NCBI GenBank assembly: GCA_002366545.1
Contig: DFBH01000055.1
Location: forward strand, 1 to 52,229
Direction of reading: 5' to 3'
Length of the DNA: 52,229 nt
Source: Candidatus Oleimmundimicrobium americanum
Lineage (GTDB): Bacteria > Actinomycetota > Aquicultoria > UBA3085 > Oleimmundimicrobiaceae
Part shown: piece after piece, positions 5,643-47,981 of the stretch
Position numbering within the stretch: position 1 is the stretch's first letter
Layout: every line of letters begins with the position of its first letter
Made by a program: the position numbers and the translations under genes
The notes under the pieces: model-generated
Seen by the model: the letters and a program-made list of their open reading frames with translations, nothing else
Databases searched by the model: none
What the model was told of the DNA's origin: nothing

Positions 5643-6785
5643 TTATTCCCCATCCCTTTTTTTAATTGTTTTTAGATACAAACCGTAAGTTATGTTTTGT
5701 AGCTCTTTCGCCTCTTCGATAAGTTTTTTAGTTTTTTCATCAAGAGCGTTGCTGTCTAAAAGGTTTTTAAGAGATTTATTATCAATTTGTACAATTTTTT
5801 CCCAAAGATTCAGGGGTTCTAAAACATCTCTGACTTTTTCGGGGTCATAAATATATTTTGCTCTTTCAGATAAAGTAATGGCGTTGACCTGTGAAAAAAT
5901 TTGTTTTAAATTATGTTCTTCGAAATATTGACGAAGGATATCTTTTATCTTTTCAAGACGAGATGTAATTAATTTTTTTTGCCCATTAAGATTTGCATAT
6001 TCGTCTATCACCTTTTCAATTTCTATTGATCCCTCGGTTTTTTTAAATTTATCCTTAAAAAATGGACAACGAGCTTGGAATGCGCACCAAGGGCACAGAT
6101 TGTTTTGAATGGGGTCAAAATTGCCCGCTTTGATATTTTCGGCGGTTTGCAAGATTAGTTCCTCGATTTTTGGTAGCTCTTCAGCTTTTCTAATCGTGCT
6201 CATCCTTATATTTGGCACTACGAAATATAAAGTAAGTTTTTCCGGCTCAATTGACCAGATATTTTTTGCGGCAAAGTAATACATGGAAAGTTGTAGGTTT
6301 TCGTCAATTTTTGACTGAGGGGGAAGTTTTCTGTTTGTTTTATAGTCTATGATTTCCAAATTGCCATTTGGGGTTTTTTCAACCTTATCGATTATTCCTG
6401 TTAGAATACATGGTTCACCTGAAGATAAATTGTCGTCAAGCTTAATTTGAAATTTGTGTTCAAGCGCTACGGGTAGAGAAAAGCTGTCTACATTGGTGCG
6501 GTAAAAGTTTCTTAAAATTTGTTTTGCAAACTCTCGGTAGGTTTTTTCTTCTCCCTCGTCTGAATATCCTTCGGAAAACCAATTTTTGTTTAGAAAATTT
6601 AAAAGGTTTTCAAGAGAAGGTGGTTTTGGAGTGGGAACGTTATAAAAGTAATACAATGTTTTATGAATGGTGCTTCCAAAGCTTAAAGCGGGAGTTTTTT
6701 TGCGAGGGAATTTGTCCACGTAAATAAATTTGTAGGAAAGCGGACAGTTCCGATATGTTGAAATAGATGAGTAGCTAAGTTTCAT
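5643..6785 (-). CDS. Cas4/RecB-like PD-(D/E)XK nuclease with a 4-Cys (Fe-S type) cluster and a C-terminal helical extension of about 130 aa
   Basis: N-terminal Cys (YRNCPLSY); GIIDKV...LEIIDYKT (D...E-x-K core); QLSMYYF (QxxxY); C-x2-C-x5-C (CPWCAFQARC). GGAGG RBS. It is the only complete minus-strand gene in the window. Confidence 0.8.
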   Translation of the reverse strand: MKLSYSSISTYRNCPLSYKFIYVDKFPRKKTPALSFGSTIHKTLYYFYNVPTPKPPSLENLLNFLNKNWFSEGYSDEGEEKTYREFAKQILRNFYRTNVDSFSLPVALEHKFQIKLDDNLSSGEPCILTGIIDKVEKTPNGNLEIIDYKTNRKLPPQSKIDENLQLSMYYFAAKNIWSIEPEKLTLYFVVPNIRMSTIRKAEELPKIEELILQTAENIKAGNFDPIQNNLCPWCAFQARCPFFKDKFKKTEGSIEIEKVIDEYANLNGQKKLITSRLEKIKDILRQYFEEHNLKQIFSQVNAITLSERAKYIYDPEKVRDVLEPLNLWEKIVQIDNKSLKNLLDSNALDEKTKKLIEEAKELQNITYGLYLKTIKKRDGE

Positions 6786-7044: not shown

Positions 7045-7767
7045 ATGGCAGTAGTTTCAATGAAAAACCTGCTTGAGGCAGGTGTTCACTTTGGGCATCA
7101 AACAAGACGCTGGAACCCAAAAATGAAGCCGTATATCTTTACTGAGAGAAATGATATTTATATCATTGATCTTCAGAAGACATTGGTTTTAATAGAGAAG
7201 GCATACGAATTTGTCAAAGAAACCGTTGCTAATGGTGGAACGGTTCTTTTTGTAGGTACGAAAAAGCAAGCTCAGGAGTCAATTAAGCAAGAAGCTGCTC
7301 GTTGTGGAATGCCTTATGTTAATTATCGCTGGTTGGGCGGTATGCTAACCAATTTTAAGACAATCAGCAAACGGATTGAGTGTTTGGAAGAATTAGAGAA
7401 AATGGACGAAAGCGGATTAATGAATAAGCTTACCAAAAAAGAAGCAATGAAACTTAATGCTAAAAAAGATAAGCTCAATAAATATCTCGACGGAATAAGG
7501 GATATGAAAAAATTGCCTGATATCGTGTTTGCAATTGACACCAAAAAAGAAGCTATAGCGATCAAAGAGGGTAGAAGACTTGAAATTCCGATAATAGGAA
7601 TAGTGGATACCAACGCTGATCCGAATGAAGTTGATTATGTTATTTCTGCAAACGATGATGCAATTAGAGCAGTTGCTTTAATGAGTAAAATTATGGCAGA
7701 CGCTTGTTTGGCGGGTATCAAGAGAAGGGTGCCCATTAAAGAAGAATTAGGAGTAATTGAAGGTTAA
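7045..7767 (+). CDS. rpsB: 30S ribosomal protein S2
   Basis: [15 protein letters not shown] signature and a strong AGGAGG RBS. Confidence 0.97.
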
Positions 7768-8473: not shown

Positions 8474-9815
<1,342 letters not shown>

Positions 9816-39799: not shown

Positions 39800-39907
39800 T
39801 TGTGGGTAAAGACATATAGGAGGAATTGAAAGTTGCTAAATAATCACCAAAACTTATCAAAATGGTAGACGTGGGGGCAGAAAGAAGTTAAAAGAGGAGT
39901 TAGATAT

Positions 39908-41215
39908 ATGAGAAAAGTTATACATGGTGAAATTTATAGCCCTGATTTTGATAATCTCAATAAATTAGTATCTGATTGGGCTTCTGCCTATAGGTTTTCC
40001 TTCTGTCGATTTCAGAAAGATAAATTAAGTTTCAACGAAGTTAGAAATTGGGCAAAGACAAAATATCCGTCCTTAAATACTCGCCAAATATCTGATGTGG
40101 TCACACAAGCACAAGGATTGTATTCAAGAGTTGAAGATAAAAAAGTAATATTTGGTGGAAGAAAATATTGGGACAAGTTAATAAAGAATGAGATATCTAA
40201 TGATGAGTGGAAATTCAAAAGAGATAACCAAATATATGTCAGAGGAGATAAAACTAAAAAAGGTAACCCAAATATCCGATTGTTAAACAAAAACGGTGGT
40301 TTTTATTTAAGAGTAACTATTGGAAACAGAAAATTCGAGGAGCATAAACTATTTGTCCCTGCTAAGTTTGAGGAACAATTAGTATCTTTATTCGGTTCAG
40401 GTAATCCTTATAATGTTCGTTTGATAAAAAAAGGCTCACAGCATTATAAAATGGTTATTGATTATGAAGTTGAAAATCCTCAAACAGTAATTGATTTTTC
40501 AAATGGAGTTATTGGCGTAGACGTAAACCCTGACAGGGTTGCAATTTCTGATATAAGGAGAGATGGAAATTTAATCAACTCTTTTTCTGTATTGAACAAT
40601 AGGATGTTTTTTGCATCAACGAACAAAAGAGATTATGAAATTGGTTGCATAGTTAAGCAGATTATGCAGTATGCTTTAAATAGAAATAAGGGAATAGTGT
40701 TTGAAAATTTGAAATTTAAGAAAGAATTTGAGAATCAAGGTAGAAGGTTTAATAGGATAAAGAGTAATTTTGTCTGGAAAAAGTTGCTTACATTGCTTGA
40801 GAGGAAATGTATTGAAAATGGTATTCAATATAAGAAAGTCAATCCCGCTTTTACTTCTGTTATAGGAAAATTTAAATATCAAAAAATGTATAATTTATCC
40901 ATCCATGAATCTGCCTCTTATATAATAGGCAGACGCGGATTAGGATTTAATGAGAAATTATCTCTTTATAAATATCCATCAAAATATGTGAAGGAAGTTG
41001 TTTTTGACCTTGCCGGAAATAAAACAAAACGAATTCACAGTTGGGCTTCGTGGAGAAAGTTAAGAGATAATTATAAAAAAGCCGTCCTCACAGGACTTCA
41101 GGGAAGAATGTCAGACCTAAAAGAGTCTGATGACAATCTCTGTTATGTAGGTGAGAACCCTACAGGCGAAGTCCTCTCAAAAGAACTGGTCTTGAGGGGC
41201 ATAAATGGTTACTAA
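39908..41215 (+). CDS. TnpB/Cas12-superfamily (IS200/IS605 OrfB-like) protein lacking the zinc ribbon and with an atypical RuvC-III motif
   Basis: RuvC-I-like VIGVDVNPDR; RuvC-II-like GIVFENLKF; NPAFTSVIG in place of the usual TS-x-x-C zinc-finger entry; IHESASYIIGRRGLG where D-x-D/N-AA-x-N is expected. No CxxC pair occurs anywhere. GAGGAG RBS 8 nt upstream. The gene is visibly more AT-rich than its neighbours. Confidence 0.7.
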   Translation: MRKVIHGEIYSPDFDNLNKLVSDWASAYRFSFCRFQKDKLSFNEVRNWAKTKYPSLNTRQISDVVTQAQGLYSRVEDKKVIFGGRKYWDKLIKNEISNDEWKFKRDNQIYVRGDKTKKGNPNIRLLNKNGGFYLRVTIGNRKFEEHKLFVPAKFEEQLVSLFGSGNPYNVRLIKKGSQHYKMVIDYEVENPQTVIDFSNGVIGVDVNPDRVAISDIRRDGNLINSFSVLNNRMFFASTNKRDYEIGCIVKQIMQYALNRNKGIVFENLKFKKEFENQGRRFNRIKSNFVWKKLLTLLERKCIENGIQYKKVNPAFTSVIGKFKYQKMYNLSIHESASYIIGRRGLGFNEKLSLYKYPSKYVKEVVFDLAGNKTKRIHSWASWRKLRDNYKKAVLTGLQGRMSDLKESDDNLCYVGENPTGEVLSKELVLRGINGY

Positions 41216-41258
41216 ACATCTATAGGAAGAAGAAAGGCTTCCTTCAAAGCTCATTATT

Positions 41259-41288
41259 TGGACCAAGGGTCCATTGTCCTCTGGACAA
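41259..41288 (+). repeat. 30-nt twin-hairpin cassette (TGGACC-aag-GGTCCA followed by TTGTCC-tct-GGACAA) in the TnpB-like/recA spacer
   Basis: Two abutting perfect hairpins, each with a 6-bp stem and 3-nt loop. The architecture is the same as the indel cassette at 43042-43071, and the TTGTCC/GGACAA stem is shared. Confidence 0.8.
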
Positions 41289-41315
41289 TTTGGTGGGTTT
41301 TGTAAACCAGGGGAA

Positions 41316-42376: not shown

Positions 42377-42847
42377 ATGATTTCCAATGATGAAAAAAGA
42401 GCGATAAATAAAGCTCTTAAGTATCTTAGTTATAGAGCTCGCAGCGTTAAAGAAACAAAAGTTTATCTAACGAAAAAAGGGTATAGCGAAGATATTATTG
42501 ACGGGGTTATAAAATATCTTAGAGAACGTGATTATTTAAACGATTTGGTTTATGCAAAGATGTGGATTGAGGATAGGAAAGAGCGAAAACTTTTTGGTCG
42601 AAACAGGATAAGGTCTGAGTTGATTTTAAAAGGGATAGATTCAAATTTAGTTGAGGAAGAACTTACCAAATTGTATTTGGAAGAAGACGAAGAGGGGAAA
42701 GCTTTTAAAGTAGCCGAAAAGCAATTAAAAAAATATAAGGAATTTGATAATTCGACTAAAAAAAGAAAGCTTTATCGATACTTGGCAAACAGGGGATTTA
42801 ATACGGAAGTTTCCATAAAAGTGTGTGAAAGGTTGTTAGTGCTATAA
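42377..42847 (+). CDS. recX: Recombination regulator RecX
   Basis: 156-aa helical-repeat protein immediately after recA, with RecX-like repeats (YLSYRARSVKE...). Confidence 0.85.
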   Translation: MISNDEKRAINKALKYLSYRARSVKETKVYLTKKGYSEDIIDGVIKYLRERDYLNDLVYAKMWIEDRKERKLFGRNRIRSELILKGIDSNLVEEELTKLYLEEDEEGKAFKVAEKQLKKYKEFDNSTKKRKLYRYLANRGFNTEVSIKVCERLLVL

Positions 42848-42904
42848 ACCACCGGTTTATCCGGTGGGCACGGCGGTAGGCAGGTCGTGGCAACCCCTCA
42901 CCTC

Positions 42905-43311
42905 CGTCATTGCGCCTGTCCGCCTCTGGCGGGAGCCCTGGTAAGGGCGTGGCAATCTCGGTTTAGCCATAATAGCCAACTTTCTTTTTTGTTTATTCAG
43001 TTGTATTTTTTGTGGGTCGCACGCACTTCACGCTCGGTTGTTTGTCCAAAGGACAATCCTCCTCTGGAGGAATCCGCGACTTTACTCGCTCCGGGCGGGC
43101 CGAGAATAACTCGCTTGCGCTCAGACAGATTCTCGGGCGCTCACTTCGTTCGTCTGTCCGCCTTCAGCCAGAAAGAGGCTTGAGCCAAGGGTTCATCAGC
43201 CTCTGGCTGAGATGGTCCCCTGGACTACTGGAGGGCTTTCCGGCCATCCACTCGCTTCATCGGGGCGGCCTCAAATTTCGCCTTGTCCAACCCACCGGGG
43301 TTTTAAAAACC
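42905..43311 (+). repeat. Copy A of a GC-rich mosaic repeat of roughly 350-400 bp
   Basis: Aligns by eye with 47181-47534 from CGTCATTGCGCCTGTCCGCC through GGCAATCTCGGTTTA..., CTTTCTTTTTTGTTTATTCA.TTGTATTTTTTGTGGGTCG, GGGCCGAGAATAACTCGCTTGCGCTCAGACAGATTCTCGGGCGCTCAC and TTCATCGGGGCGGCCTCAA.TTTCGC to CCCACCGGGGTTT. Three hairpin-associated indels interrupt the alignment. Confidence 0.85.
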
Positions 43312-43342
43312 ATAATCAGTAAAAAGCTTTTATTTTTTTCCT

Positions 43343-43364
43343 GAAAGCTAACGGCTGGCAGCTG
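43343..43364 (+). repeat. NNNNGCT heptamer array (3 units)
   Basis: GAAAGCT AACGGCT GGCAGCT G. The paralogous position in the second island carries 4+4 units. Confidence 0.7.
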
Positions 43365-43498
43365 TATTCAAATGATATGGCAACTAGCGAATAGCAGATG
43401 GCGGGAGGAGCGTTAAGCGACGCGGCAATCTCTGGGTTACATTTTACATTTTTCATTATCGTTTTTATATTTTCATTTTTATTTCTTATTTTGAAAAA

Positions 43499-43629
43499 CC
43501 TGCCCGCCTTCAGCCAAAGGTTTCAGCCAAAGGCTGATGGTTCTCTGGACTACTGGCGGGAGTGACCAAAGGAAGCGCGGCAATCTCATCCTCCTCCCGC
43601 CCTCGATGGGAGGGGCGGGAGGAGGATGA
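43499..43629 (+). repeat. Hairpin-repeat unit with a 46-nt loop insert, followed by a purine/pyrimidine hairpin of about 19 bp
   Basis: CCCGCC (43503-43508), insert TTCAGCCAAAGG...GGACTACT (43509-43554), GGCGGG (43555-43560), then ...GCGCGGCAATCTC (to 43587). Then TCATCCTCCTCCCGCCCTC / GAGGGGCGGGAGGAGGATGA (43586-43629), which has one bulged G. Confidence 0.8.
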
Positions 43630-43955
43630 GACAAACAATGGCCGGTGGCTTTTCTGCCCTGTGGTTGGTGGTAGTTTACTTGGCTTTTGATTTTTATAAT
43701 TGACAACAACCGGTCTTTAATAATAATATGATTAAGAATTGTTTTTAAGTTAATAATGGTTGAATTTAAATAGTAGATGTTTTTAAGTATTGTTGGGATG
43801 TTAATATATTTACTTAATTAGTTAATCGATTGTTCATATAAATTTAAAGCTTAAGTTCAAGCTTTAAGATTTTAATTAAATATGGCTAAGAGATTTCCTT
43901 AAATAATTTAATTTATTTAAGGATGATTTGAATTTAATTAAGTAAATTAGAACTT

Positions 43956-44007: not shown

Positions 44008-45546
44008 ATGTCGGGAATTCATGTTTTATTGATATTCGTTGCTGGGTTTTTGGGTATTGCAATCGGCTTTTTTGTAAGAAGATATTTGGCTGAAACGAAG
44101 ATAGATTCTGCTGAATCGGAAGCAAAAAAGATACTTATTGAAGCAAAAAAGGAAGCTGAAACAAAGAAAAAAGAAGCAGTTTTTGAAGCAAAAGATGGAA
44201 TTCATTCTATGAGGGCGGAAGCAGAGAGAGAGATTAGGGAACGTCGGTCAGAAGTTCAAAGGATGGAAAGAAAGCTTGTTCAAAAAGAAGAGACTCTTGA
44301 AAGTAAACGCGAGGCTGCAAACCAAGAAGAGAAAAATTTAATTGAAAGCAAGAAGAAAGTCGAAGATATTAAGAATAATTTAGAGAAGGTAATTGATGAG
44401 CAAAAGAGCGTTCTTCAAAAAGTTGCGGGGATGTCGGTTATTGAGGCCAAGGAGTTGTTGCTAAAAAGGGTTGAGGACGAGTCAAGACATGACGCAGCCT
44501 TAATGATTAGGAATATTGAAAGTGAAGCCCGAGAAGAGGCGGAGAAAAGGGCTTGCAACATTGTTTCTTTAGCTATTCAACGTTGTTCATCAGATCATGT
44601 AGCCGAAACCACGGTTTCTTCGGTTCCTCTCCCCGGTGACGAAATGAAGGGAAGAATAATAGGTCGTGAAGGAAGAAATATTAGAGCTTTTGAGAATGTC
44701 TCAGGCGTTAATTTAATAATAGACGATACTCCTGAGGCGGTTGTGCTGTCGTGTTTTGACCCGGTGCGACGAGAAATTGCAAGACTCGCTCTTACGAAAT
44801 TAATTGCCGACGGCAGAATACATCCGGCGCGGATTGAAGAGATGTATAAAAAAGCGACGCAGGAAGTAGAAACGAAAATTCGTGAAGCAGGAGAGCAGGC
44901 TGCTTTTGATGCCGATGTTCAAAGACTGCATCCCGAACTGGTTAGGGTGTTGGGGAGGTTGAAGTATAGGACAAGTTACGGACAAAATGTTTTAATGCAT
45001 TCAATTGAAGTTTCTCATTTGGCCGGAATCATGGCTTCAGAATTAGGGGTGGACGTGAAAATTGCCAGAAGAGCAGGTTTATTGCACGACATCGGAAAAG
45101 CTATCGATCATGAAGTCGAGGGTTCCCATGCTGTTATTGGAGCGGATTTAGCACGGAGATTTCAAGAGTCAGAAGCGATCTGGCATCCGATTGAAGCTCA
45201 TCATACGGATGTGGAGCCCAGAACAATTGAGGCCGTTTTAGTACAGGCTGCAGATGCAATTTCGGCTGCTCGTCCCGGGGCCAGAAGAGAAACTTTGAAA
45301 AGCTATATTAAAAGATTGGAAAATCTTGAGAGAATAGCTAATTCTCATAAAGGCGTGGATAAATCATATGTTATGCAAGCAGGCCGGGAGATAAGAATTG
45401 CGGTTAAGCCTGAAGAGATGGATGATGCTGAAGCTATTTTGTTGTCCAAGGAAATTGCCAAGGAAATTGAATCGGAAATGGAGTACCCGGGTCAAATTAA
45501 GGTAACCGTAATTCGCGAACAGAGAGCTACCGAGTACGCTAAATAA
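44008..45546 (+). CDS. rny: Ribonuclease Y
   Basis: N-terminal TM helix, coiled coil, KH ([15 protein letters not shown]) and HD (LLHDIGKA). 512 aa. Confidence 0.97.
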
Positions 45547-47074: not shown

Positions 47075-47180
47075 GACGAAGGAATTTTGTTAAATCTACA
47101 AATATTGAGATTAATAAAGAGATTTCATCGAAATTCCTGAGCTGGGCGGCCGATCATTTTTTACGGCTCCTCCCGCCATC

Positions 47181-47534
47181 CGTCATTGCGCCTGTCCGCC
47201 TTCAGCCAAAGGTTTCAACCAAAGGCTGATGGTCCTCTGGACTACTGGCGGGAGCGACCAAAGGAAGCGCGGCAATCTCGGTTTAACTATAATAGCTAAC
47301 TTTCTTTTTTGTTTATTCAATTGTATTTTTTGTGGGTCGAACACGCTCCACGCTCGGCCGTATCCGCGACTTTACTCGTTCCAGGCGGGCCGAGAATAAC
47401 TCGCTTGCGCTCAGACAGATTCTCGGGCGCTCACTTTGCTCGCCTGCCCACCTCTGGTGGGCTTTCCGGCCTTCCGCTCGTTTCATCGGGGCGGCCTCAA
47501 GTTTCGCTTTGTCCGACCCACCGGGGTTTAAAAG
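47181..47534 (+). repeat. Copy B of the GC-rich mosaic repeat (same orientation as copy A)
   Basis: See copy A. Compared with A, B carries a 46-nt insert in the first CCGCC/GGCGG hairpin (47201-47246). B lacks the 30-nt twin hairpin and the 67-nt insert that A carries. Confidence 0.85.
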
Positions 47535-47563
47535 GCAAAACTAATGCCTATTGGCTGTATATT

Positions 47564-47658
47564 CGTCATTGCGCCTGCCCGCCTCTGGCGGGAGTGACCC
47601 GCCAACGGTGGGGAGCGCGGCAATCTCGTTCTCACCCCTCCCTCAATGGGAGGGGTGA
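47564..47658 (+). repeat. Short hairpin-repeat unit (CGTCATTGCGCCTG...GCGCGGCAATCTC) followed by an 11-bp purine/pyrimidine hairpin
   Basis: CCCGCC-tct-GGCGGG at 47578-47592 and GGCAATCTC at 47619-47627. TCACCCCTCCC (47632-47642), loop tcaat, GGGAGGGGTGA (47648-47658). Confidence 0.8.
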
Positions 47659-47732
47659 GGGGAGGGTGAAACAAACAACCCACTCGGGTTTTTAAAAACC
47701 AAAATCTAACAACAATGCTCTTTTGTTTTCCT

Positions 47733-47806
47733 GAAGGCTGAAGGCTAGAGGCTAATGGCTGTTTCTAATGTTTTTCCTGGAGACTGGCGTCTGGCAGCTG
47801 GAGTCT
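47733..47806 (+). repeat. Two NNNNGCT/NNNNNCT heptamer arrays (4+4 units)
   Basis: GAAGGCT GAAGGCT AGAGGCT AATGGCT (47733-47760), and GGAGACT GGCGTCT GGCAGCT GGAGTCT (47779-47806). Confidence 0.75.
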
Positions 47807-47981
47807 GTTTTTAAATGATATGGCATTTAATTTGATGGTTTTATACAATAGAGTTAAAATTTAAATAAATCCAGGGCCCGCATCAGGGGCAGGAAAGCCA
47901 TCGGCCTTGTAGCCGGTAGTAGTTTACTTACGTAATGAAAAAATTATTGTGCAGATAAAAGCTGTAGGCAGGTTTTAAAAA

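Follow-up and report, generated by a model that had tools for sequence, protein, structure and literature searches.

A REP/BIME-like mosaic of nested hairpin modules in two intergenic gaps of an uncultivated Actinomycetota lineage

Two intergenic gaps in a 52,229-nucleotide stretch from Candidatus Oleimmundimicrobium americanum (contig DFBH01000055.1; the whole stretch is the window referred to here) hold a mosaic that resembles repetitive extragenic palindromes (REPs) and bacterial interspersed mosaic elements (BIMEs) and has three nested layers. X and Y are host modules, H is a 19-nt palindrome that lies within the hosts, and F is a filler that lies within the loop of H. Both gaps are paralogous mosaics built from these modules. 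Mosaic A (42848..43699, + strand) is a module accretion that runs from the recX stop to a promoter-like site of rny, whose TTGACA begins at 43700, and mosaic B (47100..47796, + strand) is a paralogous accretion downstream of spoVS. The locus provides a natural series at single-base resolution, from host alone to host with the 19-nt palindrome to host with palindrome and 64-nt filler, and relatives retain the empty ancestral spacers.

The filler occupies one position in the hairpin loop

Module H reads CYTGYCCRCC-tct-GGYGGG. An initial annotation of the window had described triloop hairpins with a CC-TCT-GG centre in both empty and filled form, and the three sites of each kind lie where it placed them. 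The empty hairpins are CCGCC-tct-GGCGG (42920-42932), (G)CCCACC-tct-GGTGGG(C) (47446-47462) and CCCGCC-tct-GGCGGG (47578-47592). The filled sites are 47201-47246 and 43509-43554, with 46 nt between the arms, and 43163-43229, with 67 nt. Properly aligned copies have matching flanks on both sides, so that empty and filled hairpins are indeed homologous. The proposed insert boundary, T^...^CT, also stood: the junction CCGCC-T^TCAGC...GGACTA^CT-GG is found in six of six assembled F copies, and it is the only boundary that fits a simple insertion. Three of these copies are in the window and the others are in L127, L144 and L222 (L-numbers denote related or matching loci). These three were the useful loci from a metagenome scan with the loose pattern GGTNCNCTGGACTACTGG, whose other listed matches were mostly due to chance.

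F is a chain of two to four 15-nt triloop hairpins with a period of roughly 12 nt. The long form (43164..43227, + strand, 64 nt) comprises TCAGCC-agaaaga-GGCTTGA, TGAGCC-aag-GGTTCA, TCAGCC-tct-GGCTGA and TGGTCC-cct-GGACTA, and an X unit in L222 holds a near-identical copy. The short form (47202-47244 and 43510-43552, + strand) is a net insert of 43 nt in each case. What separates the two is a segment of ~17-21 nt with AGCC direct repeats at its borders, and from its sequence short F looks like long F minus this segment. The recursive nesting suggested for long F was not upheld, as TCAGCC-tct-GGCTGA at 43196-43210 is homologous to TCAGCC-aaa-GGCTGA of short F and is a loop variant of it, the hairpin being common to every F; the long F of L144 has aaa at this position.

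The closest paralogues differ only by F (L127:4514 is empty, L127:9960 filled). Likewise, among aligned X units L240:9898 and X1 of the window are empty and X3 of the window is filled. No target duplication was seen at any junction, and the F junctions showed no microhomology able to drive precise deletion. TCAGCC... and ...GGACTA, the two ends of F, do not form inverted repeats, so that F has neither the terminal inverted repeats nor the duplication that define miniature inverted-repeat transposable elements. In six of six F copies the TGGTCC/GGACTA stem includes a G.T pair, which is valid only on the TCT strand.

When contigs from the metagenome of the window itself were aligned to long F, four left flanks could be distinguished: Y, the AT-rich module followed by H, X with H, and a 7.8-kb contig in which the hairpin stem is absent. 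This stem-less copy reads ...GCTCATCC-T[F]CT-GACAGAAC and keeps only CCT/CTG, without hairpin arms; its insertion site with CCT^CTG is CATCCTCTGACAG. Partial copies of short F are also found in contexts without H. F is a derived insertion at one fixed loop position, in hairpins whose surroundings are of at least three kinds (X, Y and beside the AT-rich module) and otherwise unrelated. In the X units listed from distant phyla most loops are empty TCT loops and none holds F, and this comparison indicates that the filled state is derived, that F is lineage-specific and that the empty TCT loop is the general state.

These results divide the earlier idea that the hairpins act as landing sites. F does lie at a fixed position of the loop, but H is itself an inserted module, and its arms are not strictly required, given the stem-less long F and the partial F copies outside hairpins. 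Instead of the hairpin, the short sequence CCT^CTG may be the target, since the stem-less copy, which keeps only CCT/CTG, favours a sequence target over arm homology.

CCTCTGG occurs eight times in the window against 2.9 expected, and one of 100 shuffles reaches eight. Seven copies are on the + strand and six lie within the two gaps. The corresponding stems number seven on the + strand (at 41273, 42919, 43057, 43196, 47230, 47446 and 47578), fewer than the nine or more counted at first. Of the triloop hairpins with perfectly paired stems of at least 5 bp, more have the loop TCT (8 hairpins) than any other. The CC-TCT-GG pattern is thus beyond chance, and its elements also recur at other loci and in other organisms.

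A literature search with strings such as GTCATTGCGAG returned primers only.

H is a small palindrome that has entered unrelated hosts

H behaves as a small REP-like palindrome, because it is found in at least four contexts: in X, in Y, beside the AT-rich module, and alone, followed by [AG]C[TA]GATGG. More than 12 copies were assembled, all of them intergenic. At 19-20 nt, with a stem of 5-7 bp and a 3-nt loop, their size and shape are in keeping with multicopy extragenic palindromes of 20-40 nt. H is preceded by CCTG or CTTG and not by the GTAG tag of classical REPs and REPINs (paired REPs that form hairpins). H occupies one fixed point in each host, after CGTCATTGCG in X and at GTTC^G^CTTTCC in Y. 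Insertion lengthens either host by a net 19 nt, although the sequences that flank H in X and in Y are dissimilar. The arms exist in CCCACC/GGTGGG and CCCGCC/GGCGGG versions, a compensatory change that is consistent with selection for pairing.

The AT-rich module of ~65 nt (TGGGTTACATTTTACATTTTTCATTATCGTTTTTATATTTTCATTTTTATTTCTTATTTTGAAAA; window 43434-43497, and two copies in L144) is itself repeated and flanks units of H and F. It contains a promoter-like match, TTTACA-17-TATATT. In two unrelated genomes (L112:5674-5700 and L075:50-75) an X and H unit ends exactly after CCGCCT, the last T being the left-junction base of F, and abuts other REP-type units.

Y elements are found in three states

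Y is an element of ~200 nt closed by GTGGGTCG...CGACCCAC. The window has two copies. Y-A (43012..43295, + strand) is closed by GTGGGTCG...CAACCCAC and carries two inserts, while Y-B (47332..47521, + strand) holds an empty H, CCTGCCCACC-tct-GGTGGG, at 47443-47461. We aligned these with five further copies, two from L222 (7727-7928 and 10942-11144) and one each from L240 (10129-10330), L241 (4033-4240) and L242 (1565-1750). Four of the seven lack H and read GTTC-(A/G)-CTTTCC at its site. Two copies, Y-B and L241, have H only, with identical CCTGCCCACC-tct-GGTGGG. Y-A is the single copy with both H and long F (43153..43235, + strand): its arms are TCTGTCCGCC at 43153-43162 and GGAGGG at 43230-43235, its loop bases are T at 43163 and CT at 43228-43229, and long F lies between them. 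Metagenome contigs recover the two simpler states of this same site. In both metagenomes, contigs join 43151 to 43235/6, as in a Y without H, and 43163 exactly to 43228, as in an empty H.

The second insert of Y-A (43042..43071, + strand) is 30 nt long and joins two triloop hairpins of 15 nt each, TTGTCC-aaa-GGACAA and TCCTCC-tct-GGAGGA. None of the other six aligned Y copies has it. Overlapping pairs of 15-nt triloop hairpins, TTGTCC-nnn-GGACAA over CAAYCC-ttt-GGRTTG, are found in L241, from the same sample as the window, at 6427-6453, 7235-7249 and 9385-9411. They are preceded by AAAAGTTTT, lie ~100 nt upstream of genes, and resemble both the 30-nt insert of Y-A and the hairpins that follow the tnpB-like gene described below.

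Y copies from different samples are 86-94% identical and share long invariant stretches such as GGGCGGGCCGAGAATAACTCGCTTGCGCTCAGACAGATTCTCGGGCGCTCAC. Their ends form an 8-bp terminal inverted pair, and no target duplication was seen. In the consensus fold, the H site and the site of the 30-nt insert both fall in predicted unpaired stretches. Covariation is limited to one compensatory pair among 49 in these seven near-identical copies. Searches of Rfam 15 gave no match at the gathering score in the window, and only chance-level hits at E <=10 in the mosaics and the insert-free Y of L240.

Sequencing depth indicates the copy number of each module, although the ratios are rough because one metagenome may contain several strains. 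The Y core reaches 25-35x the depth of flanking single-copy genes in the two metagenomes with this lineage, which corresponds to about 25-35 Y copies per genome, and the X/H bin reaches ~16x single copy. Long F reaches ~6x in one run and is absent from the other; short F reaches 2-3x.

X units recur in distant phyla

X units are laid out as CGTCATTGCG ... GCGYGGCAATCTC and fold with a 5-bp closing stem (ATTGC/GCAAT) around one or two small hairpins in an interior of 25-90 nt. Four are present in the window, all on the + strand. X1 (42905..42960) resembles a REP and bears the CGTC tag (CGTC-ATTGC...GCAAT-CTC); it holds an empty H, CCTGTCCGCC-tct-GGCGGG, at 42915-42933 and a second small hairpin, CCCT-ggta-AGGG. 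X2 (43499..43587) consists of H with short F (43510-43552) and the 3' half of X. It follows the AT-rich module and lacks the 5' CGTCATTGCG; its homologue in L144 has long F at the same place. X3 (47181..47279) is a complete X with H arms at 47191-47200 and 47247-47252 and short F at 47202-47244. X4 (47564..47630) has an empty H at 47574-47592 and an expanded second hairpin, CCCGCC-aac-GGTGGG, at 47598-47612; its fold z-score, about -4, is the sole strong one. X without H reads GTCATTGCG^AGCGACC... in L222 and L127.

We searched for X with H by scanning one genome per species with the 18-mer CATTGCGCCTGYCCGCCT. At least 114 loci matched, about half of them chance or coding matches in GC-rich genomes; the source genome was not among the matches listed. 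Among the matches listed, full units were found in Patescibacteria (Gottesman-, Roizman-, Shapiro- and Berkelbacteria, Saccharibacteria), Stahlbacteria, WOR-3, Planctomycetia, Cyclobacteriaceae (Bacteroidota), Micavibrio and others; loci in very distant phyla include L010, L022, L025, L045, L072, L085-L087, L109 and L112. The loops of the true units listed are mostly TCT, then TTT, TCA and TTG. Two listed lineages have H loops of 8-9 nt, and one has a 23-nt loop that holds its own hairpin. None of the listed units from distant phyla contains F. Their X interiors present variable hairpin slots, and in the variants GTCATCCTGAG... and GTCATTCC...GGAATC the short stem that closes X has undergone compensatory changes. 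A scan of viral contigs for X with H, Y and F gave no matches and thus no sign of a phage vector.

The mosaics are lineage-specific

We compared both gaps with orthologous sites in L243, from a Ca. Oleimmundimicrobium sp., and L245, from another metagenome-assembled genome of Aquicultoria. In the window, ~850 nt of modules separate the recX stop from the promoter-like site (TTGACA-16-AATAAT at 43700). In L243 the recX-rny spacer is 271 nt long and the promoter-like site lies directly 3' of recX, while in L245 only 48 nt separate spoVS from the PHP-domain gene. Neither orthologous spacer contains X, H, F or Y. Since the relatives' gaps are short and free of modules, sequence comparison identifies the mosaics as lineage-specific accretions. 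A closer relative, found in a metagenome run and with 96% identity in RNase Y, joins 43497 to 43699 and lacks a block whose start coincides with the H arm at the second of the filled sites.

All units of the window lie on the + strand, in sense orientation, downstream of recX and spoVS. In L127 and L240 unit orientation alternates, and there the orientation relative to genes varies.

Further repeats accompany these modules. In both mosaics a long, near-perfect GC-rich hairpin, such as CATCCTCCTCCCGCCCTC-gatg-GGAGGGGCGGGAGGAGGATG, lies directly 3' of an X unit (43587-43628 and 47627-47668). At several mosaic starts a recurrent module, ATAAACC-acc-GGTTTAT followed by CCGGTGGG, lies directly after stop codons and resembles a shared terminator-like unit (window 42844-42870; L127:9327-9343; L241:3950 and 7177; L242:1344; L222:8016). 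Upstream of the PHP-domain gene, a conserved stretch, AAATGATATGGCA ... TCCAGGGCCCGCATCAGGGGCAGGAAAGCC ... GGTAGTAGTTTACTT, is retained orthologously in a relative without the mosaic and may be a leader or small RNA (window 47797-47930; L243:8700-8860; L240:10385-10530). A partial inverted copy lies at 43640-43690 of the window. In L240 the stretch is interrupted by a 60-nt insert with a GTCATCCTGG...GGGATGA unit and ATGA on either side.

Gene context and a tnpB-like insertion

The genes of the window lie on the + strand. Those around the mosaics are, in order, cinA, an RNA 2',3'-cyclic phosphodiesterase gene, a TnpB-related open reading frame (ORF), recA and recX, which ends at 42847. A gap of 1160 nt then precedes rny (44008-45546), which is followed by a gene for a GHKL-ATPase domain protein, spoVS (end 47022), a 959-nt gap, the PHP-domain gene and miaB. 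The only sizeable minus-strand ORF in the window (5643-6785, 380 aa) shows weak matches to Cas4/AddB-type nuclease domains. The organism is uncultivated and known from metagenomes only. The closest named RNase Y, at 82% identity, is that of Candidatus Oleimmundimicrobium (Actinomycetota, class Ca. Aquicultoria), which keeps the same gene order. A Firmicute (clostridial spore-former) origin, which spoVS, rny and the low GC content might suggest, is rejected by these RNase Y homologues and by synteny. The genome is AT-rich, and the GC-rich modules are conspicuous against this background. Short-read contigs stop within both gaps, as expected of repeats. In practice, then, the mosaics disrupt short-read assembly, and they also give rise to spurious ORFs.

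The TnpB-related ORF (39908-41215, + strand, 435 aa) matches TIGR01766 with 58.7 bits in its C-terminal RuvC/zinc-ribbon part only. It lies in an insertion of ~1.5 kb (39826-41310) that is absent from the orthologous site in L243. The insertion separates the recA promoter, with its SOS-type box (CGAAC-N4-GTTCG), and the ribosome-binding site from the recA start codon, which is probably ATG 41317. Because of this position between the recA promoter and the recA start, the tnpB-like gene and recA probably share a transcript that is under SOS control. Two hairpins, TGGACC-aag-GGTCCA and ATTGTCC-tct-GGACAAT (41259..41289, + strand), lie 25-50 nt inside the right end of the insertion and share only the CC-tct-GG centre with H. 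We considered whether Y could be the guide RNA of the nearby TnpB-like protein and rejected this, as Y is not adjacent to the gene, whose 3' flank is only ~95 nt.

How the modules may have been added

We tentatively favour, with a probability of roughly 0.45, a trans-acting HUH-type enzyme that adds modules at CCT^CTG on the single-stranded top strand. Addition would take place at the DNA level while this strand is single-stranded, and modules would enter unpaired stretches (hairpin loops or junctions) at CCT^CTG, a sequence usually displayed in the loop of H. Within H, F follows the first base of the loop and precedes the second (CCT^CTGG), and no target duplication accompanies it. The agent would be a strand-specific nicking-joining enzyme of the HUH type, either a REP-associated tyrosine transposase (RAYT) or an IS200-like enzyme, acting in trans. 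Composite units would afterwards spread inside larger modules and decay through small deletions and truncations. This reading takes up the model that Ton-Hoang et al. put forward for BIME diversification (PMC3333891).

In the predicted folds, F is inserted in a hairpin loop, and the insertion point of H in X falls within an interior loop. Such placement in apparently unpaired sites fits insertion into single-stranded DNA as well as selection for structure-compatible insertions. The tnpB-family element inserted nearby counts in favour of the enzyme, as it implies that relatives of IS200/IS605 occur in the lineage. The link to single-stranded DNA transposition that was raised in the initial annotation is a reasonable hypothesis, and a single-strand mechanism of the HUH type is plausible.

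Several observations weigh against such an enzyme. A phmmer search with approximate IS608/IS200 TnpA queries, a weak test that covered ~170 kb of related DNA (~5% of a genome), found no Y1 or RAYT gene in the window or related loci. The hairpins of F abut its ends and, unlike IS200/IS605 ends, show no recognisable guide or cleavage tetranucleotides. H is, to our knowledge, shorter than any known mobile unit. Partial F fragments in unrelated contexts suggest that untidy recombination was involved as well. The filled units fold with modest z-scores (-0.9 to -2.1). In addition, whenever an empty site is compared with a filled one, the two are paralogues and not alleles. Three independent assemblies of the window's organism were compared and no presence/absence polymorphism was seen among them; as they are identical across the mosaic, current activity is unsupported.

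The main rival, which we consider somewhat unlikely, requires no dedicated enzyme: F and H would pass from repeat to repeat through gene conversion or through template switching during replication. Synthesis stalled at an extruded hairpin would switch to another copy with the same arms, and the exact junction would be the edge of the shared sequence. Most copies do offer 10-25 nt of identity on each side, in the H arms and X flanks. In Y-A, the filled H has a 5' arm, TGTCCGCC, that is similar to arms of the X type and unlike CCCACC of Y-B, as co-conversion would predict. The interchange of long and short F at homologous places, the many partial F fragments and truncated units, and the outcome of the transposase search all agree with this explanation. 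It is, however, at odds with the long-F copy that has no arm homology beyond CCT/CTG, with Y, where homology outside H is nil and the arms span only 6-10 nt, and with the addition of exactly 19 nt by H in X and Y despite their dissimilar flanks.

Alternatively, X, Y and the hairpins could be functional structured RNAs, such as 3'-UTR (untranslated region) stabilisers or multicopy small RNAs, in which random insertions survive in loops and junctions through tolerance rather than targeting. The sense orientation of all window units downstream of recX and spoVS, the G.T pairs that are valid on one strand only, and the high conservation (86-94%) and closed predicted fold of Y would suit such a role, and the prevailing view is that REPs function at the RNA level (PMC3733652). 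Random insertion nevertheless leaves the identical junction, and the identical 64-nt sequences in different hosts, unexplained. In L127 and L240 the units do not keep to one orientation with respect to genes, Y has only one compensatory pair and no Rfam family match, and we judge this explanation quite unlikely. Less likely still, to the point of being hardly credible, is that the filled form is ancestral and that precise deletion of the filler produced the empty hairpins: small deletions do occur, short F resembles long F minus an AGCC-bounded segment and HUH-type elements can excise precisely, but X units of distant phyla have empty TCT loops and no F at all, the F junctions are without microhomology, and most Y copies are without even H.

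Insertion by an enzyme has a stronger version, in which H and F would be the smallest site-specific DNA insertion modules yet seen, placed by an unrecognised trans-acting enzyme into the heptamer CCT^CTGG in single-stranded loops; successive rounds would build structured multi-hairpin elements. This is quite unlikely, though if true it would explain how REP-like elements and structured RNAs are born and grow across the many phyla that bear X. The origin, diversification and spread of REP-like repeats are unsettled, especially for the CGTC-tagged class without a known transposase. Were an enzyme responsible, its target is already defined as CCT^CTG in a loop and could be tested with oligonucleotides.

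Comparison with known systems

IS200/IS605 elements and their gene-less derivatives (palindrome-associated transposable elements, PATEs) resemble F in that they produce no target duplication, insert 3' of a fixed short sequence (...CCT here) and form single-strand hairpins with strand-specific structure; a tnpB-family gene is also present in the window. F differs in that subterminal hairpins with guide sequences are missing, its hairpins touch the ends and its length is far below that of known derivatives, and no TnpA was seen in the ~170 kb sampled. Yeast mitochondrial GC clusters and fungal mitochondrial double-hairpin elements are short GC-rich palindromic modules in AT-rich intergenic DNA, sometimes nested, and we know of no enzyme that they encode. 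They belong to another domain of life, have no sequence relationship to the present modules and are often flanked by target-site duplications.

Full-size insertion sequence (IS) elements are known to target REPs (PMC1525189). IS1397, ISKpn1 and ISPpu9/10 likewise insert site-specifically into a repeated extragenic palindrome (PMC1525189, PMC12288879). These elements are 1-2 kb long and carry their own transposase, while F is 43-64 nt long and non-coding. The REPs and BIMEs of Escherichia coli, together with their RAYT (TnpA_REP), share with the present modules the short GC-rich palindromes in mosaic intergenic arrays after genes (PMC3333891, PMC2817692). TnpA_REP cuts at several sites, and a model with single-strand circles, in which cut strands are joined again, has been proposed for BIME diversification (Ton-Hoang et al., PMC3333891). 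In contrast to E. coli BIMEs, H has no GTAG tag, our limited search found no RAYT, the units of the window have one orientation and alternate only in L127 and L240, and the modules are nested in each other's loops instead of lying side by side.

X resembles the CGTC-tagged REP superfamily, whose tag has the variants TGTC and CCTC and which includes Neisseria dRS3 and Rickettsia RPE-4/-6 and has no dedicated transposase (Di Nocera et al. 2013, PMC3733652). X1, X3 and X4 begin with CGTCATTGCG, and copies in other phyla with CGTC, TGTC or GGTC. The first pairs of the X stem are A-T and T-A, then T-A, G-C and C-G, and X has a 3-nt unpaired tail, although this is CTC/CTN and not the consensus CCA. 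X also forms inverted, tail-to-tail dimers in L127 (4514-4625 and 9960-10108) and L240, and clusters in mosaic intergenic regions; it is spread across phyla, and no transposase was seen beside it. The described families, however, have a stem of 8-9 bp and a loop of 4-5 nt, whereas X has a 5-bp stem and an interior of 25-90 nt. As it lacks these defining features, X is a relative, not a member, of the four described CGTC REP families. It also extends beyond the five phyla reported for them, into Actinomycetota, Patescibacteria, Stahlbacteria, WOR-3 and Planctomycetes.

The closest precedent for the centre of a palindrome as insertion site is Thermomicrobium roseum, in which GTAG-23 REPs are nested in palindromes of the form CCGSSCC(n3,4)GGSSCGG; in Anabaena, GTAG-15 dimers lie within long palindromes (PMC3733652). 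As here, the T. roseum host is a small GC-rich palindrome with a loop of 3-4 nt and a repeat at its centre, and many unfilled copies are present in the genome. The arrangement differs, since there a REP is inserted in a palindromic host, while here the palindrome H is inserted in a REP-like unit, the filler is a chain of triloop hairpins, and there are three levels. What is new in the present mosaics is this three-level nesting with single-base precision, the very small size of the inserted modules, and the new host lineages for the repeat type, with a CGTC-type unit now extended to Actinomycetota and several candidate phyla.

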